A DNA stretch of 64,000 bases from Acidimicrobiales bacterium (GTDB taxonomy: Bacteria > Actinomycetota > Acidimicrobiia > Acidimicrobiales > Bin134). Shown in pieces: positions 5,861 through 46,285 of this stretch. The position numbers were made by a program, and so were the translations under genes. The notes under the pieces were generated by a model. That model was not told the origin of the DNA, searched no databases, and saw nothing but the letters and a program-made list of their open reading frames with translations. Each line of letters starts with the position of its first letter. Within the stretch, counting starts at the first letter, position 1. Location of the stretch: assembly GCA_965115985.1 (NCBI GenBank), contig OZ220474.1, forward strand, positions 2,396,909 through 2,460,908, in the 5' to 3' direction.

Positions 5861-6103
5861 GTCAGCAGCTAGCTCCCACGGTCGGCGCGAGGATCGAGTG
5901 GCTAGCTCCCACGGTCGGCGCGAGGATCGAGCGGCTACCTCCCACGGTCGGCGCGAGGATCGAGCGGCTACCTCCCACGGTCGGCGCGAGGATCGAGCGG
6001 CTACCTCCCACGGTCGGCGCGAGGATCGAGCGGCTACCTCCCACGGTCGGCGCGAGGATCGAGCGACTAGCTCCCACGGTCGGCGCGAGGATCGAGGCGG
6101 CCA
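5861..6103. repeat. 33-bp tandem repeat x7 filling the whole intergenic gap
   Basis: Unit ggctacctcccacggtcggcgcgaggatcgagc with contiguous copies and no spacers. It carries the 80-codon ORF 5862..6104. Confidence 0.95.
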
Positions 6104-7255
6104 TCAGGGGCGGCGAAGCGTCAGACAGGTGATGTCGTCGGACTGGGGGGCGTCGCCCGTGAAACTCCTCACACTCTCGAACACCGCCTGGTTGGCGGCC
6201 GACGCGCTGTCGGGGGGGTGACCGTTGAAGACCTCGGTCAAACGATGCATACCGAACTGTTCGCTGGTGGCGTTCATGGCCTCGGTGACCCCATCGGTGA
6301 ACAACACGATGGTGTCCCCCGGGGCCAACGTGATCGTCTCCTGGGAGTAGGTGATGTCGGGAGCGACCCCCAGGGCTACACCATCGGTGAGCGGCAACTC
6401 GGTGACCGTGCCGTCCCTGCCGACCAGAAGCGGGGGGTCATGGCCCGCGGTCGAATAGGTGAACGACCCGGTGTCCGGGTTGAACAGGGCATAGATCAAT
6501 GTCACGAACATGAAGGTGGGGTTGTCCTGATGGAGTTGGTTGTTGACCTCGCCCAGCACCATTTCCGGGTCTCGGACACCGATGGCCGCCCCTTTCAGTG
6601 CGGTACGGCTGGACATCATGAACATCGACGCGGGGATTCCCTTGTCGGACACGTCGGCCACCACGAGGCCGATTTTGTCCTCGAGCGTGAAATAGTCGTA
6701 GAAGTCGCCGCCGACATTGCGAGCCGGTTCCATGTTGGCGGCCACTTCGTATCCGTCGTTGGCCGGGGGGGTCTTGGGCAGGATGGATTGCTGGAGTTGG
6801 CTGGCAATGCTCAGCTCGTTCTGAAGGGCCACCAGTTGGTCTCGGGACGACAACGCCTCCCGCCACTCGGCCAAGTGTTCCAAGGTGCGGGTGATGGTGA
6901 TCTTGAGGTCGTCGAAGTCGATGGGCTTGGTTACGAAATCGAAGGCCCCCCGGTTCATGGCGGTGCGGATGTTGTCCATGTCACCGTAGGCGGAGATGAT
7001 CACCGCCCTGAGATTGGGATCAACCCCGGGAAGCTGCTGGAGCAGGGTGAGGCCATCCATCTTGGGCATGTTGATGTCCGACAGCACCATATCGATGGTC
7101 GGATCGGCGTTGAGCTTTTCCAACGCCTCCACCCCATTTTGAGCAAAAACGAACTCGTATTCGTTGGAGCGGATCTTGCGGCGCATCCTCTGAAGGATCA
7201 GAGGTTCGAGGTCCGGTTCGTCGTCGACGACCAGGATTCTGTAGGGATGATGCAA
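6104..7255 (-). CDS. Response-regulator receiver fused to PP2C/SpoIIE phosphatase (RsbU-like)
   Basis: N-terminal REC domain (VVDDEPD...DINMPKMDG) and a C-terminal PP2C-type domain (GGDFYD, DGVTEA). Confidence 0.9.
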   Translation of the reverse strand: MHHPYRILVVDDEPDLEPLILQRMRRKIRSNEYEFVFAQNGVEALEKLNADPTIDMVLSDINMPKMDGLTLLQQLPGVDPNLRAVIISAYGDMDNIRTAMNRGAFDFVTKPIDFDDLKITITRTLEHLAEWREALSSRDQLVALQNELSIASQLQQSILPKTPPANDGYEVAANMEPARNVGGDFYDYFTLEDKIGLVVADVSDKGIPASMFMMSSRTALKGAAIGVRDPEMVLGEVNNQLHQDNPTFMFVTLIYALFNPDTGSFTYSTAGHDPPLLVGRDGTVTELPLTDGVALGVAPDITYSQETITLAPGDTIVLFTDGVTEAMNATSEQFGMHRLTEVFNGHPPDSASAANQAVFESVRSFTGDAPQSDDITCLTLRRP

Positions 7256-7259
7256 GGGA

Positions 7260-7589
7260 TTACCCCTGTTTGGCGTCTTCCACCGATGGAAATACGTTGA
7301 TGATCTGGTCGAAACCGCTGATGCGGAATACGTCGCCCACGGTCTCCGACAACGAGCAGATGCTGAAGGACTTGTTCTGCTTGTCGAGGCCCTGGGCCGC
7401 CATCAGCAGTACCCGCAACCCGGCACTGCTTATGTATTCGAGGCCGCCGAGATCCAGGATGACCTTCTGGTCGCCGGGATCGAACAAGCCCTGGAGGGAC
7501 TCGAGGAGATCGGATGCGTTGGATCCGTCCACCCGGCCGGAAGCATTGACGACCAGTACATCACCATTGCGATCATGACTCAATTCCAT
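7260..7589 (-). CDS. STAS-domain anti-sigma-factor antagonist (RsbV/SpoIIAA-like)
   Basis: MELSHDRNGDVLVVNASGRVD...YISSAGLRVL. ATG 7589 is preceded by AAGAGAGG. The track start 7649 is probably too long. Confidence 0.85.
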   Translation of the reverse strand: MELSHDRNGDVLVVNASGRVDGSNASDLLESLQGLFDPGDQKVILDLGGLEYISSAGLRVLLMAAQGLDKQNKSFSICSLSETVGDVFRISGFDQIINVFPSVEDAKQG

Positions 7590-7674
7590 GGCTGGGGCCT
7601 CTCTTTTCTTATTCCGTGGCCGAATATTTTGCCAGCCAGCACTATACACAACCCACCGGGCTCAACGGGTAGCG

Positions 7675-7828
7675 GCGACCGGCAGCGCTGGTGGGGGCGA
7701 GGGGTCAGCGGGGTTGGGGCGCGCTGGTGGGGGCGAGGGGTCAGCGGCGACCGGCAGCGCTGGTGGGGGCGAGGGGTCAGCGGGGTTGGGGCGCGCTGGT
7801 GGGGGCGAGGGGTCAGCGGGGTTGGGAG
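7675..7828. repeat. 36-bp tandem repeat x4 (72-bp higher order) copying the 3' end and stop of the thiolase-like gene
   Basis: The 26-nt core gcgctggtgggggcgaggggtcagcg occurs at 7685, 7721, 7757 and 7793, with alternating 10-nt linkers. The last core contains the real stop at 7813-7815. Confidence 0.9.
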
Positions 7829-8991
7829 AGGATGAGCGCGCTGGTGGGGACGGCGGTGCCTGCGGTGGCCAGCACGTTCTGCACGTTGTCGATCTGGTTC
7901 ACCGAGGTGCCCCGGATCTGCCGCACGCCCTCGGCGATGCCGTTTAGACCGTGGATGTAGGCTTCCCCGAGCTGCCCGCCGTTGGTGTTGATGGGTAGGC
8001 GGCCGTCCCGCTCCAGATGGCCGTCGCGGATGAAGTCCTTGGCCTCGCCCCGAGCGCAGAAGCCGAACTCCTCCAGTTGGGGAAGTACCAGTGGGGTGAA
8101 GTGGTCGTAGATTATGGCGGTCCGGACGTCATCGGCCGACAGGCCGCTGGACCGGTAGAGCTGGCGGGCGCACAACCCCATCTCGGGGATGCCGGTGATG
8201 CTGTCCCGGTAGTAGCTCCTCATCATGTGCTGGTCCTCGGCCGCGCCCTGCGCGGCGGCGGCGACCACGGCCGGCTTCTGCTTCAGGTCCCGGGCCCGCT
8301 CGGCCGAGGTCACCAGCAGGGCCTGGGCCCCGTCGGTCTCCTGGCAGCAGTCCAGCAGGTGCAGCGGCTCCACGATCCAGCGGCTGTTCTGGTGGTCCTC
8401 CAGGGTGATGGGCCGCTGGTAGAAGTGGGCGTGGGGGTTGGTGGCCGCGAACGACCGGTCCACCACCGACACCCGGCCGAAGTCCTCGGAGGTGGCTCCG
8501 TACTCGTGCATGTAGCGGGTGGCGAACATCGCCACCCAGGAGGCCGGGGTGACCAGCCCGAACGGCGAGCTCCACGAGAAGCTGACCTCGGCGGCTTCGG
8601 CCCCGGCGGGCCGATCCTGCACCCCGGTACCGAACCGATGCCAGGAGCGCTCGTTGAAGGCCCGGTAGCACAGCACGTAGTCGGCTGCCCCGGAGTAGAC
8701 GGCCTGACAGGCCAGGGCGACCACCCCGCAGGCCGCCCCGCCCCCATGATGGACCATGGAGAAGTGGGTCAGCTCCTCGACGCCCAGGTTGCGGGCCAAC
8801 TCTATTTCGGGATTCTGCTCGGCCGAGTAGGTCACCATGCCGTTGACCTTCTCCGGGGGGAGGCCGGCGTCCTCGCAGGCGGCCAGGCAGGCTTCCACCG
8901 CCTGGGCCATGGGGGTGCGGCCCGATTCCTTGGTGAACCGGGTGGCTCCGATGCCGGCGATGGCGCAGTGGTAGGCGTATTTCAGGGTCAT
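7813..8991 (-). CDS. Thiolase-fold protein, SCP-x/lipid-transfer (Ltp)-type
   Basis: 392 aa. MTLKYAYHCAIAGIGATRFTKESGR... is typical of non-canonical thiolases that pair with DUF35 proteins. Confidence 0.8.
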   Translation of the reverse strand: MTLKYAYHCAIAGIGATRFTKESGRTPMAQAVEACLAACEDAGLPPEKVNGMVTYSAEQNPEIELARNLGVEELTHFSMVHHGGGAACGVVALACQAVYSGAADYVLCYRAFNERSWHRFGTGVQDRPAGAEAAEVSFSWSSPFGLVTPASWVAMFATRYMHEYGATSEDFGRVSVVDRSFAATNPHAHFYQRPITLEDHQNSRWIVEPLHLLDCCQETDGAQALLVTSAERARDLKQKPAVVAAAAQGAAEDQHMMRSYYRDSITGIPEMGLCARQLYRSSGLSADDVRTAIIYDHFTPLVLPQLEEFGFCARGEAKDFIRDGHLERDGRLPINTNGGQLGEAYIHGLNGIAEGVRQIRGTSVNQIDNVQNVLATAGTAVPTSALILSQPR

Positions 8992-10445: not shown

Positions 10446-10491
10446 GCTCCCCCCTTTGCTGCCGCGCACGTTAGCGCGGCCGGCACTGGGG

Positions 10492-10742
10492 GGTGGAAAG
10501 TGAGGCGCATCGGTCATCTTCTGGGGGGTTGTCTTGGTCAGCGCGACTGGCATTGCGGGGTGGAAAGTGAGGCGCATCGGTCATCTTCTGGGGGGTTGTC
10601 TCGGTCAGCGCGACTGGCATTGCGGGCAGAAGGTGAGAGTGCGGGCATCGGTCATCTTCTGGGGGGTTGTCTCGGTCAGCGCGACTGGCATTGCGGGCAG
10701 AAGGTGAGAGTGCGGGCATCGTAGGTGCGGTGTTGGAGCGGG
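10492..10742. repeat. 67/71-bp tandem repeat x3.7 copying the 3' end and stop of fpg
   Basis: ...tcagcgcgactggcattgcgg... recurs with unit starts at 10492, 10559, 10626 and 10697. The real stop is at 10676-10678. Confidence 0.9.
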
Positions 10743-11508: not shown

Positions 11509-11747
11509 TGCACGGGTGGGGCTTATTGGCGGGAACCGAGGAGGTCGGTGGTGACGCGGTGCAGGAGCGGGGTTTATCGGCGGGAACCGAGGAGGTCGGT
11601 GGTGACGCGGTGCAGGAGCGGGGTTTATCGGCGGGAACCGAGGAGGTCGGTGGTGACGCGGTGCAGGAGCGGGGTTTATCGGCGGGAACCGAGGAGGTCG
11701 GTGGTGACGCGGTGCAGGAGCGGGGTTTATCGGCGGGAACCGAGGAG
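11509..11747. repeat. 51-bp tandem repeat x4.6 copying the 3' end and TAA stop of the nucleotidyltransferase gene
   Basis: ttatcggcgggaaccgaggag... occurs at 11523 (variant), 11574, 11625, 11676 and 11727 (native). Confidence 0.95.
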
Positions 11748-12533
11748 GGTGCGGGCAATCTCCAGGTCCTCGGGGTTGGTGATCCCGATCCAGGATTCGT
11801 CGGTGGTGACGACCCGGACGGTGAGGGCCCCGGCCTCCATTCGGGCCGCGACGGCCCGGGGGAGGAGGTACTCGGCGGTGGGACTGTGGCGGTTCTCCTC
11901 GAGGAAGCGGGCGAAGCCGTCCCGCAGGCTGTTCATGAACCCGGGGGGGAAGGCCCACAGGTTCATGGACACCAGGGTGTCGGCGGGAAAATCGTTGCCG
12001 GCTCGAGATATCCCCTCCTGTTCGGTGATGCCGGTGAGACGATCACCGTCCACGCGGCACACGCCCCGGGTCACCGAGCCCTCGGCCGGCAGGGTGCGGT
12101 CGAGGTGGTAGCCGCACAACCAGGCCTCGTTGTCGGCCATTGTTCTCATGGCTCGGGCCAGGGCGGTGTACGCGGTGGGGCCGTAGTAATCGTCGGCGTT
12201 GCCCACCATGAACGGGCCGGTCACCGCCCCGGCGGCCGACAGCACGGCGTGGGCCGTGCCCCATGGCTTCGGGCGGGGAGGGCCGTGCTCGTCCTGGCGC
12301 ACGAAGGTCACCTCCAGATCGGCGGGTAGTCCGCCGCGAGCCTCGAAGTGTCGGTTCACGTCGGCCTCGATGTCGCTTCGCACGATGAGCACCACTCGGT
12401 CGGCCCCCGCGGCCCGGGCATCGGTAATGGCGAAGTCCAAAAAGGCCTCGCCCCGGGGTCCCACCCGGGCGAGTTGCTTGGTCCCGCCGAAACGCGACCC
12501 CAGCCCCGCGGCCATCACTATGAAAGTGAACAT
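11727..12533 (-). CDS. Nucleotidyltransferase-family protein (sugar-phosphate NTP-transferase fold)
   Basis: N-terminal MAAGLGSRFGG..K signature. 268 aa. Confidence 0.75.
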   Translation of the reverse strand: MFTFIVMAAGLGSRFGGTKQLARVGPRGEAFLDFAITDARAAGADRVVLIVRSDIEADVNRHFEARGGLPADLEVTFVRQDEHGPPRPKPWGTAHAVLSAAGAVTGPFMVGNADDYYGPTAYTALARAMRTMADNEAWLCGYHLDRTLPAEGSVTRGVCRVDGDRLTGITEQEGISRAGNDFPADTLVSMNLWAFPPGFMNSLRDGFARFLEENRHSPTAEYLLPRAVAARMEAGALTVRVVTTDESWIGITNPEDLEIARTLLGSRR

Positions 12534-12624
12534 TGTTCCAGTCTCCGGCGCAGGGTGGGCATGCAGAGGGGTTTGGCTACGGCCATCACTATGAAAGTGA
12601 ACATTGTTCCAGTCTCCGGCGCAC
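12511..12624. repeat. 71-bp-period duplication of the overlapping stop/start junction (43-nt core x2)
   Basis: gccatcactatgaaagtgaacattgttccagtctccggcgca occurs at 12511 and 12582. The upstream copy supplies the helicase TAG (12589-91) and the downstream copy supplies ATG 12533. Confidence 0.9.
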
Positions 12625-19663: not shown

Positions 19664-20863
19664 TCAGAAGTGGGTGAGTTGGGTGTGGGCCAGGCGGCCC
19701 ATGGCGGGGGCCATGAGGGCTTGTTCTCGGAGTGCGTTTCGGGCCAGGTAGTGGGCGAGTTGGGCGTCGTCGGTGAGGTCGAGGTGATGTCGGTCGGCCT
19801 GGTCCTGTTCGGCCAGTGTCGGGCCGATGCGGTCGACCATGTCGAGGTAGCGAACCAGGCGGGCGATTGATTTGGCCCGGACTGCGGCGTACCCGTCCAG
19901 GGCGGGGGTGATGACCGTGCGCAGGTCGTCCAGAACGGCGGCGTAGATGTCGCTCACCTCGGTGTCGGGGGGTTCGGGCAGCTCCGGGGGTTCCACCACC
20001 ACCCCCAGGGCCCGGCAGACCAGCTCGGCGGTCACTCGCCGATGGAGAACGGCGAACAGCTTGCCCATGCCCGGGTCGCCACCGGCGGTACCCGGAACCC
20101 CCAACCCGACCAGGTTGCGCACCTGGCAGGCCAGTTGCCAGTACCGCACCCGCTCGACGTCCACCGGGCCGTCGTACCAGCCGAACGCGGTATCGACGTC
20201 CACGAACGGGGTGAGCATGGCCCGTACCGTTATCCAGGCCAGATCCTCCATGGGGTCACCGACGTGGGCCAGTTCCCAGTCGCACAGTCCGGTCACCCGC
20301 CGGCCGTCGTGCATCACGTTGCCCGGCCCCAGATCACCATGAACCAGCACCGCCCGCTCGGGCGGCCCGGGCGCAGCCTCGGCCAGGTGGCGCAGACCGA
20401 GGTCGATCAGTGGATCGGCCTCGGGGCAGTGTTCGTCGTAGATGCGAGTCCACCGGGCCAGGTCGTCGACCTCCAGGTGATCGGGCGGTTCCAGAGCATG
20501 GAGGGCGTTCACCTGACCCATGAAGTCCTGGGCCACCTCCGCCTCGTCCAGCGGCCCCGGAGCGCCCTCGAGGAACTCCAGCAGCAGGACTCGTCCATCG
20601 GGGTCGGCACCGTAGGATGCGGCCGCCCTCACGGGGGTGTCGGCCAGCCAGTCGTACACCCGGGCCTCGCGGGCCAGGTCGTATCCCACGATGGTCAGCG
20701 GAGACGTTCCGTTGTCCATTCTCAAAAAACGGCGCTGGCCGTCCAGCAAGCCCACCACCCACGCCTGGCGGGACGCCCCTCCCGGTATCCGCACCGCCTC
20801 GACGACCGACTGCCCGCAGCGATGCTCGATCCAGTCGATCAGCTCCCGGTCGAGGTTGTTCAT
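19664..20863 (-). CDS. Phosphotransferase-family kinase (APH/choline-kinase fold)
   Basis: LVHGDLGPGNVM catalytic loop and DWE motif. ATG 20863 (MNNLDRELIDWIEHRCG) is the only repeat-borne start followed by the gene body. Confidence 0.8.
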   Translation of the reverse strand: MNNLDRELIDWIEHRCGQSVVEAVRIPGGASRQAWVVGLLDGQRRFLRMDNGTSPLTIVGYDLAREARVYDWLADTPVRAAASYGADPDGRVLLLEFLEGAPGPLDEAEVAQDFMGQVNALHALEPPDHLEVDDLARWTRIYDEHCPEADPLIDLGLRHLAEAAPGPPERAVLVHGDLGPGNVMHDGRRVTGLCDWELAHVGDPMEDLAWITVRAMLTPFVDVDTAFGWYDGPVDVERVRYWQLACQVRNLVGLGVPGTAGGDPGMGKLFAVLHRRVTAELVCRALGVVVEPPELPEPPDTEVSDIYAAVLDDLRTVITPALDGYAAVRAKSIARLVRYLDMVDRIGPTLAEQDQADRHHLDLTDDAQLAHYLARNALREQALMAPAMGRLAHTQLTHF

Positions 20864-21117
20864 CGGGTGGATCCCGCCTGGCGTCCCCCACCGATCCAGT
20901 CGATCAGCTCCCGGTCGAGGTTGTTCATCGGGTGGATCCCGCCTGGCGTCCCCCACCGATCCAGTCGATCAGCTCCCGGTCGAGGTTGTTCATCGGGTGG
21001 ATCCCGCCTGGCGTCCCCCACCGATCCAGTCGATCAGCTCCCGGTCGAGGTTGTTCATCGGGTGGATCCCGCCTGGCGTCCCCCACCGATCCAGTCGATC
21101 AGCTCCCGGTCGAGCAT
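20827..21117. repeat. 65-bp tandem repeat x4.4 containing the kinase start codon and first 12 codons
   Basis: cgatccagtcgatcagctcccggtcgaggttgttcatcgggtgg... occurs at 20827, 20892, 20957, 21022 and 21087 (partial variant). Confidence 0.95.
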
Positions 21118-28047: not shown

Positions 28048-28968
28048 TCATAGTTGTTGTGTTGGGGCGGCGGGGATGCGGGTGCGGCTGAGGCGCACGG
28101 TCTGGCCGAAGGAACGAACGGCGGCTCGAAGCGCTCTCAGGCCGAGCATGGACACCTGTCCGGTGGTGCGATCCCGGTGGGGCACGGGCACTTCGGCCAG
28201 GTGGCCCCCGGATCGGGCCAGCATCCCCGAGAGCACCACGTTGGGGGCGAAGGTGTCGTCGGGGATTAGCGCCACCAACCGGGCCAGCACGGTCGAGCGC
28301 ATGAGTCGGTAGGGGCAGTTCACGTCGGCCAGCTTGCAGCCGAAGGCGGCTCGGGCGGTGAACCGGGCCACCCGGGAGATGGCCCGCCGCCCCGGTGACT
28401 GGTTCCGATTGGTGCGGATGCCGATGACCGCGTCCACCTCGCGGCGCAGGTTCCACAGCTCGCCGAATGCGTCGGCGGGCATCTCGTCGTCGGAGTCGGT
28501 CTGGAACACCCAGTCGGCGGTGATCACCCCCCGTCGGTAGCCCCGCAGCACGGTGGGCCCGTGTCCGCTATTGGCCTTGACGTCCACCACCAGGCAAGGG
28601 TGGTGCTCGGCCACCTCCCGCAGGATCTCCTCGCTGGCATCGGTGGCCCCGTCCACGATGGTCACCAGCTCGTAGCGGATTCCCAGGCGGTCGAGAACCC
28701 CGAGCCAGTCATCGACCACCTTGGCGATGATCCCCTCCTCGTTGTGTACCGGCATGACCACGCTCAGATCCAGCCGTTCGTCCGGTGGGGTGGTGGTCAT
28801 TGCCGCCGGTTCCAGGCGTTCGTCCGGTGGGGTGGTGGTCATTGCCGCCGGTTCCAGCCGTTCGTCCGGTGGGGTGGTGGATGTCACTTCGGGCTCGGTA
28901 CCGGCCGATGATTGCCGGTGGGGGTTGCCAGTGGTTGATGCCGCAGTCGCCTCGGGTTCGGCGGTCAC
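28048..28968 (-). CDS. Family-2 glycosyltransferase (Dpm1/polyprenol-phosphate type)
   Basis: VVMPVHNEEG...DGATD...DSDDE motifs. GTG 28968 overlaps the SDR stop (GTGA). Alternative ATGs lie inside the repeat (for example 28800). Confidence 0.8.
   Translation of the reverse strand: MTAEPEATAASTTGNPHRQSSAGTEPEVTSTTPPDERLEPAAMTTTPPDERLEPAAMTTTPPDERLDLSVVMPVHNEEGIIAKVVDDWLGVLDRLGIRYELVTIVDGATDASEEILREVAEHHPCLVVDVKANSGHGPTVLRGYRRGVITADWVFQTDSDDEMPADAFGELWNLRREVDAVIGIRTNRNQSPGRRAISRVARFTARAAFGCKLADVNCPYRLMRSTVLARLVALIPDDTFAPNVVLSGMLARSGGHLAEVPVPHRDRTTGQVSMLGLRALRAAVRSFGQTVRLSRTRIPAAPTQQL
28770..28890. repeat. 42-bp in-frame tandem repeat x2.9 in the GT2 N-terminus
   Basis: It encodes TTPPDERLEPAAM x3. 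Each copy carries an ATG. Confidence 0.9.
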
Positions 28969-29900
28969 CCCTCGGGGGTGCTTTCAGCCAGAAGCCGGGC
29001 CTCCTTGTCGGCCAGGACGGCACCGCTCAGGTCGTAGCGGATGGCGGCGGTGTTGGGCTCCGGCCCGTCCCAGCCGGGCAGCAGACCCCGCTCGTGGCAG
29101 AAGAACTGGGCCTCCACATTGGTGCCGTTCAGTTCCCGGGCCTCGGGGTCGGTGGCCAGCCAGGCCACCACCGCGCCGATCACGTCGGGAGGTTGACCGG
29201 TGTCGTCGAAGCCGAACTGGGCCATGTCCTGGGCGATGCGTTCGGTGGAGATGTAGCCGGGCTGCACGTTGAAGGCGTTGATGCCGTCGTCGCCGTGCTC
29301 CACGGCCAAGAACCCGGCCACCCGATGGAAGGCCCCCTTGCTGATGCCGTAGCCCATGCCCCATCCCCCGCCCCCGGCCGCTGCGGTGGGATCGGCATAG
29401 CCCGAGGCCGAGGTGATGTTCACGATGGTGCCGTGTCCCCGCTCGATCATTCGGGGCAGGAACGCCTTGGTCAGCACCAGCGGGGCCAGGCAGTTGGCCC
29501 GCAGGTGGCGGTCCAGCAGCTCGATGGGGGTATCCAGCAGGCGGTCCATGTGGCCCGGTCCGATATAGCGTCCGTTGTTCACCAGCACGTCCACCCGACC
29601 CCAACGTTCCAGTACCGTGGCGGCCGCGGCCCCCAGGGAGGCGTCGTCGAGCAGGTCGGCGGCCACGATCAGCGCCTCGCCCCCGGCCTCGGCCACCAGG
29701 GCCGCGGTGGACGACAGGCTGCCCGGCAGCGGCGAGGTGTCCGACCGCTTGACGGTGGACGAATGCTCCCGCTCCTCGCCCTCCCGGACGGTCCGGGCCG
29801 ACACCGCGACGTCGAAACCCGCCCGAGCCAGATGCACCGAACACGCCTTGCCGATCCCCCGACTGGCCCCGGTGACGAACGCCACCGGTCGGTCACCCAT
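28965..29900 (-). CDS. Short-chain dehydrogenase/reductase
   Basis: VAFVTGASRGIGKA and YGISKGA motifs. ATG 29900 is in the downstream copy of the duplicated junction. Confidence 0.85.
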   Translation of the reverse strand: MGDRPVAFVTGASRGIGKACSVHLARAGFDVAVSARTVREGEEREHSSTVKRSDTSPLPGSLSSTAALVAEAGGEALIVAADLLDDASLGAAAATVLERWGRVDVLVNNGRYIGPGHMDRLLDTPIELLDRHLRANCLAPLVLTKAFLPRMIERGHGTIVNITSASGYADPTAAAGGGGWGMGYGISKGAFHRVAGFLAVEHGDDGINAFNVQPGYISTERIAQDMAQFGFDDTGQPPDVIGAVVAWLATDPEARELNGTNVEAQFFCHERGLLPGWDGPEPNTAAIRYDLSGAVLADKEARLLAESTPEG

Positions 29901-29968
29901 GGCGGAACCCTGGGCGGGGCCGAACCGTTCCCGACGGTGGGACCACCGCCCGGTCACCCATGGCGGAA
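29885..29968. repeat. 61-bp-period duplication of the ATGGGTGA stop/start junction
   Basis: ggtcacccatggcggaa occurs at 29891 and 29952. Confidence 0.85.
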
Positions 29969-34724: not shown

Positions 34725-34770
34725 AAATTGAGGGTTCCCTATATGGAGACTTACAATTTGAGGGTTGGCC

Positions 34771-34779: not shown

Positions 34780-34804
34780 TCCGGCTACTTGAGAGGAACT
34801 GCCT

Positions 34805-35113
34805 ATGACAACCACCAACACTCCAACAATGAACAGCACCCCGGACATACCCCCACCACCAACCTAACCACCCACAACTACCGGACAAAATAAGATATGG
34901 TACAAACCCTCCTGGAGTTCCATTAAATATTATTTTTGGAATTTTATTGCGCTGATTATATCAAATACAGTGTCTAATTTTTTGCCCGAACCTTTTTATA
35001 GTCATCGCTATCTTCTTCTTATAATAGTAGGTTCAGGTACCTTAATTATATTTGGTGCAATTGTACCTGGCGCATTGGTTTGGGCATGGTTGCGGTCAAG
35101 ATACGGTCGATGA
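34805..35113 (+). pseudogene. Small membrane protein, paralog 2, with in-frame TAA at 34865-34867
   Basis: MTTTNTPTMNSTPDIPPPPT*PPTTTGQNKIWYKP...LPEPFYSH... is homologous to the neighbours but interrupted. No in-frame ATG follows the stop. Confidence 0.5.
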
Positions 35114-35412
35114 GGAGCCTAAAAGTAATAATCGAGTAACTATCAAGGGGACTGTTAGTTATGAGAAAGCCTTTTGAATTGGTAGTCCCCTAATCGTGGG
35201 TGAGCAAATGGCGGGGTTCCTATAGCAAGCACGACAATAAACACTACAACTACTAAGCTCTTACGAAGCCTCTTTGTGTTCCTCTCGATTATCTTGAGGG
35301 TAACCACCCTTGACGACCACCACTGACCCCTGCTACATGGCCCCGAAAGCTTTAACGTAACATTTTATCTCATAACTAACAACCCCCTCGATAGTTACTC
35401 GATTACTATTAC

Positions 35413-35862
35413 TTAGACTTTCCGTTGTCTATTCCTAAGCAACATAAATACACTAATGAGTATTATAGCAATACCAAACACTCCAGCAAGTAGAGTAAAA
35501 TCACTAGCAAAAGGTTCAGGTAAATAGCGGGATATCAAAAACGCCAAAAAAATCACTAACCAATGAACTAACGTCCCAATAGGTATTATAATCCAAGAAG
35601 TGCTGCGCTTTCTCTTTAGTTTGGTAGTTGTGGGTGGTGGGGGAATGGTTGGGGCCATGTCGGCATCGGTAGCAACCGGTGGTGCGGCGGTGTTGGCCGA
35701 GGTGTGGTAGGCACCGGTGGCAGTGTCGGCTGGGGTGGCTGGTGATCCGATGTTGGCCATCATAACTCGGTGGCGGGGCTGGGGGTGGCTGTTGAGCCTG
35801 GTTGGCGGCGGGGCCGGGGGTGGTGCAGATTCCCGGCCCTCGTCGGTGGGGGTCTGTTCCAT
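35413..35862 (-). CDS. Small membrane protein, paralog 3 (start uncertain)
   Basis: PPPPTTTKLKRKRSTSW..., LPEPF between two TM segments, and a basic tail RNRQRKV. Confidence 0.55.
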   Translation of the reverse strand: MEQTPTDEGRESAPPPAPPPTRLNSHPQPRHRVMMANIGSPATPADTATGAYHTSANTAAPPVATDADMAPTIPPPPTTTKLKRKRSTSWIIIPIGTLVHWLVIFLAFLISRYLPEPFASDFTLLAGVFGIAIILISVFMLLRNRQRKV

Positions 35863-35891
35863 TTCGAGGGGGTGGCGGGTAGGGTGGGGGT

Positions 35892-36575
35892 ATGCAGGTA
35901 GATATTCGTCATGCTCCCAGTTTTGCGGTTGCCCGGTGCGTTCTGAGCGGTGGGGAACAGGTCAAGGTCGAGGCGGGGGCCATGTCGGCCCATTCCATGG
36001 GGATGTCGCTGGAGGCCAAGATCGATGGCGGGGTGTTCAAGGGGCTCAAGCGCAGCATCCTGGGTGGCGAGTCGCTGTTCTTGTCCACCTTCACCGCCCC
36101 GGCCGAGGGTGGTTGGGTGGATGTGGCCGCCAAGCTGCCCGGCGACCTGCGGGTACTCGAGTTGGACGGCTCGCAGGCGTGGGTGATCGAGCGGGGCAAC
36201 TGGCTGGCCTCCGATGCCTCGGTGGGGGTGGACACCAAGTGGAGCGGGTTCAAGTCGATGGTCGGCGGCGAGGGCGGTTTCATGGTTCACGCCGAGGGCA
36301 CCGGCAAGGTGGTGGTGGCCTCCTACGGGGCCATCGATGTGATCTCGCTGGCGGCCGGCGAGTCGGTGGTGGTGGATACCAGTCACATGCTGGCCTTCCC
36401 CGACACGGTTAGCTACGAGCTGCGTCGGGCGGTGGAGGGTCGCTCGATCCAGTCGATGAAGTCGGGCGAGGGCTTCGTATTCCACTTCACCGGCCCCGGC
36501 GACATCTTGACCCAGACCCGCAACCAGCAACAGCTCATCGCCTGGATCAACACCGAGATCGGTTCCCGGGAGTAG
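35892..36575 (+). CDS. AIM24/DUF124 (TIGR00266) family protein
   Basis: MQVDIRHAPSFAVARCVL..GEQVKVEAGAM...GESLF is characteristic of the family. Confidence 0.85.
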   Translation: MQVDIRHAPSFAVARCVLSGGEQVKVEAGAMSAHSMGMSLEAKIDGGVFKGLKRSILGGESLFLSTFTAPAEGGWVDVAAKLPGDLRVLELDGSQAWVIERGNWLASDASVGVDTKWSGFKSMVGGEGGFMVHAEGTGKVVVASYGAIDVISLAAGESVVVDTSHMLAFPDTVSYELRRAVEGRSIQSMKSGEGFVFHFTGPGDILTQTRNQQQLIAWINTEIGSRE

Positions 36576-36730
36576 GAGCCTGGATCAACACCGAGATCGG
36601 TTCCCGGGAGTAGGAGCCTGGATCAACACCGAGATCGGTTCCCGGGAGTAGGAGCCTGGATCAACACCGAGATCGGCTCCCGCGAGTAGGAACCTGGATC
36701 AACACCGAGATCGGCTCCCGCGACGCGAGG
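36541..36730. repeat. 38-bp tandem repeat x5 copying the last 11 codons and TAG of the AIM24 gene
   Basis: cctggatcaacaccgagatcggttcccgggagtaggag occurs at 36541, 36579, 36617, 36655 and 36693. Confidence 0.95.
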
Positions 36731-36762: not shown

Positions 36763-37731
36763 CTAGCGGTGACAGCAGTCGGTGGGGCAGGGGGGTGGTG
36801 GGGGAGCGAGGGCGAGGTCGGCGATCATGGCCACGAATGCGGGGTGGGTGCCGACGGTGGGGACTCGGGAGAACCGGAGTCCCAAGGAGTCGGCTCGCCC
36901 CCGGGCCTCGGTGTCGAGGTCGTAGATGACCTCCATGTGGTCGGCCACGAAACCGATGGGCACCACGATCACCGCGTCCGCCCCGTCTCGGGCCAACCGG
37001 TCGAGTTCGTCGCCGATGTCGGGTTCCAACCACGGCACCCGGGGCGGGCCGCTGCGGCTCTGGTAGGCCAGCGACCACCGGTCGGTTCCGGTGCGGGTCG
37101 CCACCTGGAGACAGGCCCGGTCGAGCTGGGACTGATAAGGAGCGGTGGCCGCCATTGAATGGGGAATGCTGTGGGCGGTGAACACCACGGGGGCGCTTGG
37201 CTCCGCCTCCCGGGCGACGGCCAGATTGGCGGCCATGGCCGACAAAAAGCCCTCGTGCTCCCAGAACGGAGGCAGCTTGTCGATTACCGGTGCATCGGGT
37301 CCGACCGCCGCCCGGGCCCGGTCGATGTCCTCGGCGTACTGCCGACAGCCCGAGTAGGAGCCGAAGGCCGAGGTGACGAACCCTGTCGACCGGGTAATGC
37401 CGTCGTCGCGCATCTCGGCCACGGCGTCGGTCAGCATGGGTGTCCAGTTCCGGTTGCCCCAGTAAACCGGAATATCGGCTCCCCGCCCGGCCAACTCGTC
37501 AACCAGGGCGGCCATCAGGTCACGGTTGCACTGGTTGATGGGACTGATGCCGTCGAACAAGTAGTAATGCTCGGCCACCGCGGCCAGGCGGTCGTCACCG
37601 ATACCCCGTCCCCGGGTCACGTTGCGCAAGAACGGCATGACGTCATCGGGCTCCTCGGGTCCGCCGAACGACACGATCAGGATCGCGTCGGGACGGGAGC
37701 CAGGCATTGCGGTTGAGGATACCGTGGGCAT
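36763..37731 (-). CDS. hemH: Ferrochelatase (actinobacterial type with C-terminal Cys cluster)
   Basis: ILIVSFGGPE, PFWEHEGF and HSIPHSM motifs. The C-terminus is PPPCPTDCCHR. Confidence 0.9.
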   Translation of the reverse strand: MPTVSSTAMPGSRPDAILIVSFGGPEEPDDVMPFLRNVTRGRGIGDDRLAAVAEHYYLFDGISPINQCNRDLMAALVDELAGRGADIPVYWGNRNWTPMLTDAVAEMRDDGITRSTGFVTSAFGSYSGCRQYAEDIDRARAAVGPDAPVIDKLPPFWEHEGFLSAMAANLAVAREAEPSAPVVFTAHSIPHSMAATAPYQSQLDRACLQVATRTGTDRWSLAYQSRSGPPRVPWLEPDIGDELDRLARDGADAVIVVPIGFVADHMEVIYDLDTEARGRADSLGLRFSRVPTVGTHPAFVAMIADLALAPPPPPCPTDCCHR

Positions 37732-37866
37732 GGTCGGTTGCCGACTGCGGTCAGCCCGGAGCCAGGCATTGCGGTTGAGGATACCGTGGGCATGGTCGGT
37801 TGCCGACTGCGGTCAGCCCGGAGCCGGAGGCATTGCGGTTGAGGATACCGTGGGCATGGTCGGTAG
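37697..37866. repeat. 62/64-bp tandem repeat x2.7 containing the hemH start codon
   Basis: gagccaggcattgcggttgaggataccgtgggcatggtcggttgccgactgcggtcagcccg occurs at 37697, 37759 and 37821. ATG copies lie at 37731, 37793 and 37857. Confidence 0.95.
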
Positions 37867-37952: not shown

Positions 37953-38861
37953 TTGCGGGTTAGAGAACGCAGTCGTCTGACGGTTCTTATCAGTGCCGTG
38001 GCCGCCACCTTGGCGACTGCCGGCGGGGTCGCTCTTGGGCAGATGGATGGACAGAGCGATGGAGACGACGATCCGATCTCGCCGGTAGCGGTCGAGTCGG
38101 CCGACCCGGCGTGGCGCGATCTGAACCGAGCTCTCCAGGATCTCGAGACCGCCGAAGCGGCCCGCGACGCCGTTCAGTCCTCCATTGACCGCACGACCGA
38201 CGAACTGAACCTGGAACTGGGTCGGCTGGATCAACTCAACCGCACCGATGCCGGCAAGCGGTTGCTGGAGGGGGAGGCCCGACAGTTGGTCGTGCAGGAG
38301 TACATGCTGGGGGGCCATCTTGAGGATCTGGTGTTCGTCCTGGGGGTGTCCGAGGCCACCGACGCCATTTGGCGCAATGCCCTGCTTTCGGAGGTGTCCG
38401 AGGTGATGGACGATGCCTTGAGGTCGACCGATGACGTGCCCGGGGAGCGGGAGCGAACCGAGGCTCGCATTCGGCGGCTCAACAACGCCCTGCCGTATCT
38501 GAACGACCGCGTGGCCGATGCCAAGCAATCGGTGGCGGCGGCCGAGTGGGTGGTGTACATCGCCGAGATCAACGATCTGGCCGACCGCGAGCTGGCGGCC
38601 AACGGATGGATAGAGCCCACCGAGAGTCATTGGCACAACCTCCGGTGGTGCGAATCCCGCAACAACTATCGCATCGAGAGTGCCAACGGCCTGTTCTACG
38701 GTGCCTACCAGTTCGAGCCCCGGACATGGAGAACGGTGGGCGGCACCGGCAACCCGGCCCACGCCCCGCCCGAGGAGCAGGATGCCCGAGCCCGTCTGCT
38801 GTACGCCCGCAGGGGGGCCCAGCCCTGGCCCCGGGACTACTGCGGTCGGTGGCTGCCGTAG
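37953..38861 (+). CDS. Secreted Rpf-like transglycosylase-domain protein with coiled-coil N-terminal region
   Basis: Signal-like N-terminus after a TTG start with GGGAGAGAG upstream. The C-terminal WHNLRWCESRNNYRIESANGLFYGAYQFEPRTW resembles the Rpf/transglycosylase-like domain. Confidence 0.75.
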   Translation: MRVRERSRLTVLISAVAATLATAGGVALGQMDGQSDGDDDPISPVAVESADPAWRDLNRALQDLETAEAARDAVQSSIDRTTDELNLELGRLDQLNRTDAGKRLLEGEARQLVVQEYMLGGHLEDLVFVLGVSEATDAIWRNALLSEVSEVMDDALRSTDDVPGERERTEARIRRLNNALPYLNDRVADAKQSVAAAEWVVYIAEINDLADRELAANGWIEPTESHWHNLRWCESRNNYRIESANGLFYGAYQFEPRTWRTVGGTGNPAHAPPEEQDARARLLYARRGAQPWPRDYCGRWLP

Positions 38862-38977
38862 TTCCAACCCAAGTCCCCCCAGTACCGGGCGGCCCCAGTA
38901 GTTCCAACCCAAGTCCCCCCAGTGTCGGGCGGCCCCAGTAGTTCCAACCCAAGTCCCCCCGGTGCCGGGCGGCCCAG
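38858..38977. repeat. 40-bp tandem repeat x3 starting on the rpf-like TAG stop
   Basis: gtagttccaacccaagtcccccc.gt..cgggcggcccca occurs at 38858, 38898 and 38938. Confidence 0.95.
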
Positions 38978-42976: not shown

Positions 42977-43318
42977 TCAGCCGTCGCCGAGCAGTCGGTT
43001 GACCATTCGGGCCATCGGGCCGGGTCGGGGAGGTTCGTAGTCGTCGGGCACCAGGTGGGGGGCGTAGTGGGCCAGGGTGGTCATTACCCGGTCGGGTGTG
43101 GGGTTCACCATGGCGGTGTCACCCACCACCACGGTGGGCACCGTTTCGTTGCCGGCGGCCACCGATCGGACAAAGGCGGCCGCCGAGGGATCCTCCCAGA
43201 TGTTGTGCATGTCCATGTGTACGCCGAGTTCGTCCAGCTTGCGGTGCAGGTGAGCGCAGAACCCGCATCCCGGTCGCCAGTAGAACGTGATGCCGCCCAC
43301 CGGGGAGTTCGAGCTCAC
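42977..43318 (-). CDS. Glutaredoxin-like protein (mycoredoxin type, CGFC)
   Basis: ITFYWRPGCGFCAHL...TVPTVVVG. The GTG start at 43318 lies within a GTGA. Confidence 0.8.
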   Translation of the reverse strand: MSSNSPVGGITFYWRPGCGFCAHLHRKLDELGVHMDMHNIWEDPSAAAFVRSVAAGNETVPTVVVGDTAMVNPTPDRVMTTLAHYAPHLVPDDYEPPRPGPMARMVNRLLGDG

Positions 43319-43432
43319 GGCACGTAGGGCAGGGCCAGCACCACCCGCTCGGCCAGGTCGCGGTCGCCGCTCACGGCACGTAGGGCAGGGCCAGCACCAC
43401 CCGCTCGGCCAGGTCGCGGTCGCCGCTCACGG
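43314..43432. repeat. 56-bp tandem repeat x2.1 of the GTGA junction and last 19 codons of the DinB-like gene
   Basis: ctcacggcacgtagggcagggccagcaccacccgctcggccaggtcgcggtcgccg occurs at 43314 and 43370, with a partial copy at 43426. Confidence 0.95.
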
Positions 43433-44168
43433 TAACCAGCCCGGTGGCCAGTGCCCCGGCCGGATCGGTGCGGCCGCAGCACAGCGCGTTGTAGGTGTCC
43501 ACGTCGGTATGCACGGTAGCGGTGGGCTCGGAGGCCGGGGCCGAGGGCTTGGCCCGACCATCGATCACCGCCACCCCTCGGGGGCCGCCGGTGTCGCCCT
43601 CGACGTCGAATACCACGGTGCTTCCCTCGGGAGCGCCCGCCTTCTTGCCCACCACGAAGCCCATGTTGTTGGCGTGCCAGTCCAGGCAGTGTCTAACCAC
43701 CGGACCACTCAGATGACCGGGGATACCGAGCGCCCGGCGCATGTCCTGCTCGTGGGCCCAGCAGTCGAACACCCGGATGTGCATGAACGTCCGGTAAGGG
43801 GCCTTGCCGATCGGGGTGAAACCCACCTCGTCCCACTTCTCCTCGGGCATGGTTCGCAGCATCTCCAGCCGCCGGGCGCAGAGATCGATCATCTCGGCCA
43901 GCACCTCCGCGCCGGGGCGGGATCGTCGGGGGGCGATCTGACCCTCGTTGAACGCGGCGATGTCGTCCAGCCCATCCCCAGTGGCGGGGGGTTCGGTGTC
44001 CACCCCGGCCAGCATCCGCTCGGTGCCGATGATGTGGCTGACCTGGTCACGCACCGACCAACCGGGGCACTCGGTGGGCAGGTCCCACTGCTCGTCGCTC
44101 AGTCCCGCGCCGAGGTCGGCAATGGAGTCCCAAACCGATTCCAACAACTCGATGACCGGATCGCTCAT
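43371..44168 (-). CDS. Mycothiol-dependent maleylpyruvate-isomerase-like DinB-fold protein (TIGR03083 type)
   Basis: MSDPVIELLESVWDSIADLGAGLSDEQWDLPTECPGWSVRDQVSHI. Confidence 0.8.
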   Translation of the reverse strand: MSDPVIELLESVWDSIADLGAGLSDEQWDLPTECPGWSVRDQVSHIIGTERMLAGVDTEPPATGDGLDDIAAFNEGQIAPRRSRPGAEVLAEMIDLCARRLEMLRTMPEEKWDEVGFTPIGKAPYRTFMHIRVFDCWAHEQDMRRALGIPGHLSGPVVRHCLDWHANNMGFVVGKKAGAPEGSTVVFDVEGDTGGPRGVAVIDGRAKPSAPASEPTATVHTDVDTYNALCCGRTDPAGALATGLVTVSGDRDLAERVVLALPYVP

Positions 44169-44314
44169 CCTGGTGTCCTTTTCATCAATGGATCGTCCGT
44201 CATGTCTGCCGGCCGCCTGGTGTCCTTTTTATCAATGGATCGTCCGTCATGTCTGCCGGCTCTTCATCCGGGGGCCGCTTCCGACGTGTAGCCCTTCATC
44301 CGGGGGCCGCTCAT
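44165..44314. repeat. Composite repeat (47-bp x2 and 33-bp x2) carrying five ATGA overlaps
   Basis: cctggtgtcctttt.atcaatggatcgtccgtcatgtctgccgg occurs at 44169 and 44216. cttcatccgggggccgct occurs at 44263 and 44295. Confidence 0.9.
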
Positions 44315-45042
44315 GTCTCCAACCCCACGGTGAACGACCGGGTGTCGTCGTCGAGCATCTGGCGTATGGCCTCGGCCACCGGACCCCGGATGATGCGTCG
44401 AGTGGCCGCGAACGCCGTGATCGACAGCCCCTCGGCCAGCGCCGCGGCCTCGGCCATGGCGGCCTCCTCCAGCTCCTCGGCCGGCACCACTCGATCGAGG
44501 TAGCCGGCATCGACCGCGGTGTCGGGCGAGTAGAGCCGGGCCAGCAGAACCGAGGAGTGAACGTGGCGGGGGGACAGCCGGTCGCGGGCCAGCGTTATCA
44601 CCGACGCGGGCAGCACCATGCCTATGGCGGTCTCGTTGAGTCCGATCTTGGCCGGGACGGCCGCACCGATGCGCACGTCGCAGCTCATCAGCCAGATGGC
44701 CCCGGCGGCCAGGGCGTGGCCGGTGCAGGCGGCCACCACCGGGATGGGGAACTCGTACAGCCTCAGGAACAGATCCATGCCCGCTCGGAACAGGTTGCGG
44801 GCCGCTTCGGGGCCGGACTCCATCACCTTCAGATCGAATCCGGCGGTGAACCGGCCCGGGCGACCCATCATCACCACGGCCCTGGCCTCCTCGGCCGCTT
44901 GATCGAGCACCGTCTCCAGGCCGGTGATGACCTCGTGGGACAAGACGTTGACCTTGCCGTCGTCCAGCCTGATGATGGCGACGTCGCCGTTCGGTTCGTA
45001 GCCGACCGAGGCGCTGGTTGTCCCTGTCATGGCCGATGACAC
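44311..45042 (-). CDS. Enoyl-CoA hydratase/isomerase (crotonase) family
   Basis: VAIIRLDDGKVNVLS...GRFTAGFDL oxyanion-hole region. 243 aa. Confidence 0.85.
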   Translation of the reverse strand: MSSAMTGTTSASVGYEPNGDVAIIRLDDGKVNVLSHEVITGLETVLDQAAEEARAVVMMGRPGRFTAGFDLKVMESGPEAARNLFRAGMDLFLRLYEFPIPVVAACTGHALAAGAIWLMSCDVRIGAAVPAKIGLNETAIGMVLPASVITLARDRLSPRHVHSSVLLARLYSPDTAVDAGYLDRVVPAEELEEAAMAEAAALAEGLSITAFAATRRIIRGPVAEAIRQMLDDDTRSFTVGLET

Positions 45043-45083
45043 TATCCCACCCGTCCGCCAGGATCATCAGCATCGGGATCGTC

Positions 45084-45246
45084 CCCGCTCGGATCGTCGG
45101 AACCGGGACCGCCGGCACCCGGATCGTCCCTATTCGGATCGCCGGCGCTCGGATCGTCCCGTCCCTATTCGGACCGCCAGAACCGGGATCGCCAGCGCTC
45201 GGATCGTCCCGTCCCTATTCGGACCGCCAGAACCGGGATCGCCACC
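45084..45246. repeat. 48-bp tandem repeat x~3.4 in a divergent promoter region
   Basis: gcgctcggatcgtcccgtccctattcggaccgccagaaccgggatcgcca occurs at 45146 and 45194, with degenerate copies upstream. Confidence 0.85.
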
Positions 45247-45262
45247 ATTAGAATTGCTCGTC

Positions 45263-46204
45263 GTGGTGGCTGCCATTTCTGTTCGCGGTATGCGCCGAAC
45301 CTACGGAGAGGTGGTGGCGGTCGACTCGCTCGACCTCGAGGTGGCCGAGGGGGAGGTCTACGGATTTCTGGGCCCCAACGGCGCCGGTAAGTCCACTGCG
45401 GTGAGGATGCTGTGTACGTTGGTGTCGATGACCTCGGGGACGGCCTCGGTCGCCGGTTACGACGTGGCCACCCAGGGCGATCGGGTGCGGCTCAGCATCG
45501 GGGTGGCCCTTCAGGACGCGGCCCTCGACGGCAAGCTCACCGGGCGGGAGACGCTGACCCTTCAGGGCCGGTACTACGGTCTGGAGCGGGCATCCATCAC
45601 CGCTCGCATGGAGCAGTTGGCCCCCCTGCTGGAGATGGATGCCATCGACCGGCGAGTGTCCACCTACTCGGGGGGTATGAAGCGCCGACTGGATCTGGCC
45701 GCCGCGCTGATGCACAACCCCAAGGTTCTGTTCCTGGACGAGCCCACCACCGGACTCGACCCCATCAGCCGAGCCACGGTCTGGGAACAGATCCGGCGGT
45801 TGAATCGTGAGCTGGGCATGACCATCTTCCTCACCACCCAGTACCTGGAGGAGGCCGACATGCTGACCCACCGGGTGGGGATTTTGAACGAGGGTCGCCT
45901 CGTGGCCGAGGGAACGCCCGATGAGCTCAAGCGCACGGTGGGCTCCGACGTGGTGGTGGCCCGGGTGGTCGGCAACCCCGAGGTGGCGGCCGCGGCCATC
46001 GGCGAGGTGCCGGGCATAAGCAACGTGGAGGTCTACGAGAACGAAGTGAGCGCGGCCACCGGCGACGGGGCCTCGGTGATAAGCCCGGTGGCGGTGGCGT
46101 TGTCGGCGGCCGGAGTGGAGGTATCCGACCTGTCGATCCACCCCACCACGCTCGACGACGTGTTCCTCGAGCTCACCGGAGCCCGGATAGAGGTGGAGGA
46201 ATGA
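45263..46204 (+). CDS. ABC transporter ATP-binding protein (DrrA/ABC-2 type); start approximate
   Basis: GPNGAGKST, LSGGMKRRL and LFLDEPT motifs. The start is probably GTG 45263/45266 just before ISVRGMRRTYG. Confidence 0.85.
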   Translation: MVAAISVRGMRRTYGEVVAVDSLDLEVAEGEVYGFLGPNGAGKSTAVRMLCTLVSMTSGTASVAGYDVATQGDRVRLSIGVALQDAALDGKLTGRETLTLQGRYYGLERASITARMEQLAPLLEMDAIDRRVSTYSGGMKRRLDLAAALMHNPKVLFLDEPTTGLDPISRATVWEQIRRLNRELGMTIFLTTQYLEEADMLTHRVGILNEGRLVAEGTPDELKRTVGSDVVVARVVGNPEVAAAAIGEVPGISNVEVYENEVSAATGDGASVISPVAVALSAAGVEVSDLSIHPTTLDDVFLELTGARIEVEE

Positions 46205-46285
46205 GCGACCCGGCCTGCGACTCGTGCCAGGAGGCGGTGCGCTGCACCGGAGCCCGGATAGAGGTGGAGGAATGAGCGACCCGGC
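46174..46285. repeat. 71-bp-period duplication (41-nt core x2) of the ATGA ATPase-stop/permease-start junction
   Basis: caccggagcccggatagaggtggaggaatgagcgacccggc occurs at 46174 and 46245. Confidence 0.95.

Follow-up and report, generated by a model that had tools for sequence, protein, structure and literature searches.

Duplicated start codons in a Candidatus Poriferisocius chromosome mostly retain a stop-on-start geometry, consistent with selection for termination-reinitiation coupling

A 64,000-nucleotide stretch of an Acidimicrobiales chromosome (GenBank assembly GCA_965115985.1, contig OZ220474.1, positions 2,396,909 to 2,460,908; hereafter the window) contains some 30 local duplications that are nearly perfect and have periods from 24 to 75 nucleotides (nt), in addition to 111-nt protein repeats. 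In 10 of the 11 arrays that duplicate a start codon with a period not divisible by three, counted over the window and two loci of a sister genome, the short open reading frame (ORF) opened by the copied start terminates on the next start codon, or a short chain of such ORFs does. This geometry recurs in independent events of different sequence and is not seen at spurious ORFs. The arrays are probably locus-specific duplications of the minisatellite type, which were filtered by selection in such a way that termination-reinitiation coupling was kept.

The window belongs to the chromosome of a sponge symbiont of the Acidimicrobiia (Candidatus Poriferisocius clade) and has a G + C content of about 65%. 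Among species-representative genomes, a complete metagenome-assembled genome of Candidatus Poriferisocius sp. (Acidimicrobiia) comes closest, its helicase being 69% identical. Protein searches revealed a 3.04-Mb Poriferisocius chromosome as the closest relative (the sister genome), of which two proteins are 87% and 75% identical to those of the window. Two repeat-rich loci of the sister genome (L001 and L004, 45 kb in total) were compared, together with three loci from repeat-poor relatives (L002, L003, and L005). Arrays were detected with Tandem Repeats Finder and an own offset scan, and their enumeration is complete for the window, L001 and L004, which amounts to 109 kb from two genomes. The junctions were displayed base by base on the gene strand in all three frames and the ORFs were computed from them; some of the start choices may differ from those of a gene caller. 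Positions without a locus name refer to the window.

The repeats occur far above chance expectation, two strong examples being a 65-nt unit in 4.4 copies with 100% identity (20827-21114) and a 33-nt unit in 7.2 copies (5864-6101). About 24 of the 30 arrays (approximately 80%) touch a gene boundary (p = 4e-10 against a generous expectation of 25%), a pattern that would be left by the purging of disruptive duplications within genes. All start-duplicating arrays are found on the gene strand. In the window, L001 and L004, the periods are concentrated at 65/66 and 71/72 nt, corresponding to 22 and 24 codons, and also at 32-38 nt; about half of the arrays (22 of about 45) have periods of 60-75 nt. 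L002 (20.8 kb), the sole repeat-poor locus that was scanned, contains two weak arrays, and the junctions of the repeat-poor genomes are compact. The duplications are therefore regarded as recent and lineage-specific.

The original prediction had named six loci at which the offset of the stop codon relative to the start codon, added to the repeat period, gives a multiple of three. All six sums were found to be correct on the gene strand, and at each of these loci the copied (decoy) start is followed by an ORF, 16-28 codons long, whose stop lies in or beside the next start. The clearest example is the 65-nt unit at 20827..21117 (minus strand, 4.4 copies), located at the 5′ end of a gene for an APH-family phosphotransferase (19664..20863, Pfam APH). 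It contains four ATGA-linked mini-ORFs, the first of 20 codons (21117..21055) and three more of 22 codons each with the peptide MNNLDRELIDWIGGGRQAGSTR (21058..20990, 20993..20925, and 20928..20860), and each TGA lies within the next ATGA until the real start at 20863 is reached. The phosphotransferase gene is the first gene of its unit and has no upstream gene, and the first repeat unit carries an ATG of its own at 21117 in the same frame. The locus is thus a duplicated gene start and not, as had been assumed for all loci, a duplicated junction.

Genuine stop-start junctions were duplicated at four further loci. Between the genes of an ABC ATPase and an ABC-2 permease (46174..46285, plus strand), two copies of a 41-nt block that includes ATGA flank a 30-nt filler (period 71), and the mini-ORF 46201..46275 (MSDPACDSCQEAVRCTGARIEVEE) stops in the ATGA of the real permease start at 46272. 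The same junction consists of a single ATGA in L005 and L004, so that the window gained 71 nt. A clean tandem duplication of 56 nt (2.14 copies, 43313..43432, minus strand), bounded by the 8-nt microhomology CCGTGAGC, is located at the junction of an MDMPI_N-family gene and a glutaredoxin gene (Glutaredoxin Pfam match); here the mini-ORF 43374..43315 (VSGDRDLAERVVLALPYVP) stops in the GTGA of the start at 43318. At the junction of SnoaL_4 and short-chain dehydrogenase genes (29890..29968, minus strand), the 18-nt block TTCCGCCATGGGTGACCG occurs twice, 61 nt apart. The stop codon of this junction (ATGGGTGA) lies 5 nt after the start, and the frame logic therefore demands a period of 1 mod 3, which is what the period of 61 provides and what a plain preference for 2 mod 3 leaves unexplained. 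The mini-ORF (29961..29893) comprises 22 codons, the real start is at 29900, and L005 has the ancestral 8-nt overlap ATGTCTGA. Finally, a 44-nt block with a 27-nt filler (period 71) is duplicated between the genes of an AdnB-like helicase-nuclease and a nucleotidyltransferase (12509..12623, minus strand). The junction has the form ATG-N10-TAG, and a mini-ORF of 28 codons (12604..12518) leads to the real start at 12533; in the repeat-poor relatives the gap measures 13 nt.

Two of these junctions differ further between the genomes. The window has an intact glutaredoxin gene (42977-43318), GTGA-coupled to the MDMPI_N gene; sister locus L004 (around 11930-12085) retains a repeated, stop-containing remnant of it, and L005 lacks it and has a terminator-like hairpin instead (11800-11880). 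The gap between AdnB and the nucleotidyltransferase holds in L001 (13584-13665) a 10-nt microsatellite of eight copies (AGCAAGGCTT) and a 26-nt block repeated 64 nt apart.

Relays with more than one hop were found at two further loci of the window. The 142-nt gap between an enoyl-CoA hydratase gene and an MDMPI_N gene (44165..44314, minus strand), which contains a 47-nt repeat in two copies and a 32-nt repeat, is wholly filled by four ATGA-linked mini-ORFs (44314..44264, 44267..44247, 44250..44200 with 16 codons, and 44203..44165) encoding MSGPRMKGYTSEAAPG, MKSRQT, MTDDPLIKRTPGGRQT, and MTDDPLMKRTPG, respectively; the real start is at 44168. The ATGA duplicated with the 47-nt period (44169) is part of a relay mini-ORF and, like the start at 20827, does not belong to a gene junction. 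In L005 the same hydratase>MDMPI_N junction is a plain 31-nt spacer with a ribosome-binding site. The second case is a 23-nt block containing ATGA that was copied 73 nt upstream at the 5′ end of a UvrD-like helicase gene (52043..52138, plus strand). A two-hop chain, consisting of MKCP (52055..52069) and an ORF of 21 codons (52066..52131), terminates within the ATGA of the genuine helicase start (52128), which is backed by amino acid conservation with the sister genome. This array (period 73) had been missed in the original prediction, as had an exception with a period of 62 described below; its eight listed loci all stood.

Reckoned from the first stop-codon base to the start, the hops in all chains have a spacing of −13, −5, −1, +2, or +4 nt. 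ATGA or GTGA links the mini-ORFs at 20827, 46174, 43313, 44165-44314, and 52043, and related overlaps are found at 29890, 12509, and 5862-6104. The copied blocks at 29890, 44169, and 52043 are devoid of sequences resembling a ribosome-binding site; initiation there would therefore depend on a terminating ribosome.

Two arrays with periods divisible by three behave as had been described. The 33-nt array (7.2 copies, 5862..6104, minus strand) between the genes of a response-regulator/SpoIIE phosphatase and a HATPase_c_2 protein resembling anti-sigma kinases contains a single bridging ORF of 80 codons (6104..5862), which begins with TGATG on the stop codon of the phosphatase and ends with TGAcATG at the HATPase_c_2 start. 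At the junction of a periplasmic binding protein and a histidine kinase (2466..2599, minus strand), the GTGA overlap is duplicated in frame with a period of 66, resulting in a 22-residue in-frame repeat at the N-terminus of the kinase. A family-2 glycosyltransferase gene has a further in-frame repeat including ATGA in its N-terminal region (42 nt, 2.7 copies, 28769..28880, minus strand).

The sister genome possesses its own arrays, with different sequences and in some cases at the same junctions, and these follow the same rule. At L001:3913 a period of 23 at an ATGA junction gives a frame sum of 24. At L001:19689 (period 71), between the phosphatase and HATPase_c_2 genes, TAATGA-linked ORFs of 23 and 14 codons are followed by TGAcATG, and at L004:12894 (period 65), between the hydratase and MDMPI genes, ORFs of 22 and 12 codons are all linked by ATGA. 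The SnoaL>short-chain dehydrogenase junction at L004:2872 (period 72) is crossed by a bridging ORF from GTGTCTAG to ATGAGTGA, and in-frame extensions are present at L001:15383 (period 66), L001:20243 (period 51), and L004:1863 (period 36). The earlier suggestion that only duplications preserving translational coupling survive is favoured by L001:3913, L001:19689, and L004:12894 together with the controls below.

A relay at the phosphatase>HATPase_c_2 junction could also be found without any repeat. In the repeat-poor loci L002 (15848-15898, MLNPVRSQSAARGR, from TGATG to TGAaATG) and L003 (15854-15901, MIVTTRFQPAPRGR, from ATGA to TGAaATG), an ORF of 14 codons spans a gap of 42-45 nt. The relay position is thus kept in four genomes, with 80 codons in the window, two hops in L001 (19689-19812) and one short ORF each in L002 and L003. 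Its ends are tied to the stop and start codons on either side, the peptides are unrelated and their length ranges from 14 to 80 codons. Fixed ends combined with a free peptide point to the act of translation and not to its product.

The frequency of the geometry was evaluated on the complete enumeration. The 10 of 11 arrays correspond to p = 0.006 against a null of 1/2 and to p = 1.3e-4 against the null of 1/3 that had been put forward for the frame arithmetic. A further seven to eight start-duplicating arrays are in frame (extension or bridging), and the disruptive class accounts for at most one of the 19 start-duplicating arrays, compared to one third expected (p = 0.0047). Duplications that copy a gene 3′ end but no start codon were used as a control, namely a 51-nt unit in 4.5 copies in the stop region of the nucleotidyltransferase gene (11518..11748, minus strand) and the arrays at 7667-7849 (period 36/72), 36540-36723 (38), 38858-38975 (40), 47605-47715 (75), and 32115-32259 (71). 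Together with three sister-genome arrays, these six have periods in which each residue class is represented three times (3:3:3). When every array lacking a duplicated start is counted, the ratio is 5:5:9, which does not depart from uniformity (chi-square, p = 0.43). As a second control, the spurious long ORFs that are frequent at this G + C content and were obtained as by-catch of the automated scan of both strands were analyzed. For periods not divisible by three, stop-on-start geometry was found at none of seven spurious ORFs and at seven of eight genuine starts (Fisher p = 0.0012). Shuffle nulls for the relay chains were abandoned, since shuffling of a gap preserves its length and hence the frame, and the frame classes were evaluated by binomial and Fisher tests instead.

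With respect to their structure, the arrays fall into clean head-to-tail repeats, including 20827, 43313, 5864, 2466, 36540, and 11518, and a block-filler-block type, in which a perfect block of 18-57 nt was copied 60-89 nt away with unique filler in between. The latter comprises 12509, 27913, 29890, 40431, 46174, 47605, and 52043 in the window, L001:15383 and L001:19689, and L004:12894 and L004:13705, and represents net insertions. With filler between their copies, 46174, 12509, and 29890 are no clean tandem repeats; like 47605 and 52043, they amount to 1.3-1.7 'copies'. Neither BLAST against the whole window nor local alignment to 3 kb on each side on both strands revealed a template for the filler above shuffled controls, the sole exception being arrays with internal sub-repeats.

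An all-against-all comparison of 30 units yielded one match across loci, between 3805 and 5239, and a dispersed repeat family or mobile element as the source of the arrays was thereby ruled out. The matching 36-nt-unit arrays (3805-3958 and 5239-5411) are a single array split by an IS3-family insertion sequence (4011-5239), which consists of an rve/HTH_21 transposase gene (4011..4880) and a small upstream ORF (4877..5239). This insertion seems to have hit an in-frame repeat of about nine copies in the signal-peptide region of a periplasmic binding protein gene, which is probably disrupted by the insertion; in the relatives this protein has 368-429 residues and its start is located at a GTGA overlap.

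For termination-reinitiation coupling, stop and start have to overlap or lie very close together (Huber et al., 2019, PMC6728339; PMC10666635), and an insertion into a junction should therefore do harm if no relay ORF spans it. In the proposed scenario, tandem duplications, or near-tandem ones with filler, would arise often in one Poriferisocius lineage and would then be sorted by selection. If the copied and the real start share a frame (period a multiple of three), an N-terminal extension or a bridging ORF would result and the duplication could survive. It could likewise survive if the short ORF of the copied start stops on or beside the next start (ATGA, GTGA, ATGNNTGA, or TAATGA overlaps), as a ribosome that finishes the upstream gene or a mini-ORF might reinitiate at once at the overlapping start. 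One to five mini-ORFs would in this way relay translation over the enlarged gap to the real gene. A decoy ORF running through the real start out of frame would occlude this start and break the coupling, and such a duplication would be purged.

Alternatively, the geometry may be a by-product of a mutational bias, either because certain lengths are favoured (with peaks at 65/66 and 71/72 nt) or because the junction itself triggers duplication. The strong clustering of periods, with the recurrence of 65, 66, 71, and 72, is in line with this explanation, as are the enrichment at gene boundaries and a residue of 2 mod 3 in nine of the 14 control arrays with periods not divisible by three. However, the residue class follows the local geometry, with 65 and 71 at ATGA and 66 and 72 where the unit is read in frame. 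The period is 61 where the stop lies 5 nt past the start, and the 73-nt case functions only by way of two hops; these two cases therefore favour the frame logic over a fixed residue class. Furthermore, the 3′-end duplications are evenly spread over the three residue classes, and the purging of in-gene duplications alone predicts the enrichment at boundaries. A duplication process tied to the coupled junction, which the original prediction had offered as its second option, is consequently not needed, and mutational bias as a whole is considered unlikely.

Somewhat less probable still is that the arrays act as hypermutable expression dials, in which the copy number sets the number of reinitiation hops and tunes the ratio of downstream to upstream protein, or that the mini-ORFs are regulatory leader peptides. 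Such a function would be in agreement with copy numbers of 1.3 to 7, which at one and the same junction are not alike in the two sister genomes, and with the maintenance of the relay in four genomes at the phosphatase>anti-sigma kinase partner-switching module, where stoichiometry matters. It is opposed by the lack of relatedness among the peptide sequences, by the repeat-poor relatives, which do with compact junctions, and by the search for terminator or antiterminator structures and known RNA families, none of which were found in the window. The bolder ideas of an evolvable translational rheostat, whose copy number is changed by slippage, and of a dedicated process inserting block-plus-filler segments of 60-75 nt at stop-start junctions are held to be just as doubtful. 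That chance and the selective listing of fitting arrays produced a true rate of about one third is very improbable: eight of about 30 arrays had been named initially with the exception at 37696 omitted, and length-jittered shuffles of the gaps give a single-hop bridging chain in about 14-19% of trials, since stop codons are rare at 65% G + C, but the full enumeration, the replication in the sister genome and the control with spurious ORFs all contradict it.

Selective filtering for coupling is thus the preferred explanation, and several points weigh against it. The 62-nt repeat (2.7 copies) at 37696..37864 (minus strand), located where the 5′ end of a ferrochelatase gene lies (start 37707), is an exception, as the decoy ORF opened in its second copy is out of frame and continues for 28 nt beyond the real start. 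The arrays at 20827 and 37696 are situated upstream of first genes, and their upstream copies may be untranscribed; yet 20827 fits the rule. If the bias towards 2 mod 3 seen in the control arrays is allowed for, the 10 of 11 weaken to p~0.05, and the sample of 109 kb from two genomes is small. The block-filler-block structure is not what simple slippage yields. Finally, translation of the mini-ORFs and reinitiation as the selected trait are read from the DNA sequence and would each be a step beyond the geometry. The interpretation given in the original prediction is accordingly supported in part: the geometry and the controls agree with it, and the exception, the sample size and the two loci that are not junctions do not.

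If the explanation by selective filtering is true, the genome represents a natural mutagenesis experiment on translational coupling, in which dozens of independent stop-start insertions would have survived only with an unbroken chain of overlapping mini-ORFs. Reinitiation could then pass through several non-functional ORFs over more than 100 nt, and many genes of this uncultured lineage would rely on ribosomes coming from upstream. The 65-nt unit at 20827 and the four-ORF chain at 44165-44314 are concrete units that can be tested. For annotation, gene starts adjoining such arrays have to be regarded as prone to miscalling.

Two other arrays at gene boundaries have a different organization. A 71/67-nt array duplicates the 3′ end of an Fpg glycosylase gene in the gap to a ChsH2-like gene (10473..10721, minus strand); every unit contains the self-contained mini-ORF MTDARTLTFCPQCQSR, and the real downstream start (10445) lies outside the array. 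Between a NifU and an amidohydrolase gene, a 46-nt unit is repeated 4.8 times (50047-50267), each with a start-stop pair ATGTGA and a 4-codon ORF initiated at GTGA/ATGA, and no complete relay chain was found there.

The gene content of the window is that of an ordinary chromosome. It includes genes for a two-component sensor kinase, SpoIIE-type phosphatase, STAS and HATPase_c_2 partner-switching proteins, a thiolase, an AdnA/AdnB-like nuclease-helicase pair, topoisomerase subunits, a ferrochelatase, an ABC transporter, and RCC1-repeat proteins. A phage origin, considered because of a long run of genes on the same strand, was excluded by the gene content (AdnAB-like nuclease-helicase, topoisomerase subunits, thiolase, and two-component system) and by synteny with complete Poriferisocius chromosomes. 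An assembly artefact is unlikely, since the sister-genome arrays of different sequence follow the same rule; moreover, the repeats are short and the relatives are closed long-read assemblies. Transfer RNAs were not found in the window, and no Rfam family reached the gathering score anywhere in the 64 kb.

Apart from the arrays, the window contains three genes for RCC1-repeat (eukaryote-like) proteins composed of 111-nt (37-residue) repeats, all on the minus strand (58693-60588, 62169-63920, and 55316-57469), of which the third is located in a stretch of low G + C content (50-55%) beside an integrase-core fragment (57714..58238). Near-tandem duplications of the 3′ end, with periods of 71 and 75, are present at two genes for DUF222 + HNH endonucleases (32188-33540 and 47668-49020, minus strand), of which paralogues elsewhere in the same genome are 62-88% identical. 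The region 34001-36000 has a G + C content of 47.6%, compared to about 65% overall, and two 16-nt homopolymer runs (G16 at 47210-47225 and C16 at 61204-61219) were detected.

The closest known counterparts are the interspersed repetitive units of mycobacteria (MIRUs), repeats of 40-100 bp that are often in tandem and are found intercistronically or at start codons (Supply et al., 1997, as cited in PMC12548453 and PMC3184786). An ORF inside the unit shares bases with the stop and start codons on either side (spacing −4), and their insertion barely disturbs expression; they form one dispersed family of about 40-50 related copies per genome, and 4-nt direct repeats at filled sites suggest mobility (PMC12548453, PMC3184786). 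Like MIRUs, the arrays described here lie at start codons or in gaps between genes of the same direction, follow the orientation of the gene, and carry a small ORF per unit with ends overlapping the flanking stop and start (ATGA/GTGA), by which coupling to the downstream gene is thought to be retained. In contrast to MIRUs, their units are locus-specific, derived from the junction itself and unrelated between loci, and the direct repeats measure 18-57 nt with mutually unrelated fillers instead of 4 nt. Empty sites for arrays of the window were seen in L005, L004, and L002, and the host is a sponge symbiont of the Acidimicrobiia, not a Mycobacterium. The arrays would work in a MIRU-like way but, due to the unrelated units, their origin from the own junction and the longer direct repeats, stand outside the MIRU family. 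If selective filtering holds, the MIRU principle would be widened from one mobile mycobacterial family to de novo duplications in another actinobacterial class.

Stop-start overlaps such as ATGA, GTGA, and TGATG are shared with coupled gene pairs. The known cases involve two real genes, whereas here up to five non-conserved mini-ORFs are lined up, and the chains appear to carry ribosomes over gaps of 55-243 nt created by the duplications. With minisatellites or variable number tandem repeats, which arise by slipped-strand mispairing, the arrays have in common periods of 20-110 nt and, in the clean repeats, nearly perfect copies arranged head to tail; microhomology bounds at least one event (CCGTGAGC, 43313), and periods within genes are divisible by three. 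They differ in the many partial copies, in filler without a local template and in the clustering of the periods at 65/66 and 71/72 nt. Simple slippage predicts neither untemplated filler between the copies nor such clustering. The concept of a repeat that keeps translation coupled is already known from MIRUs; what the present case adds is its generality, the multi-hop relays and the conserved relay ORF.

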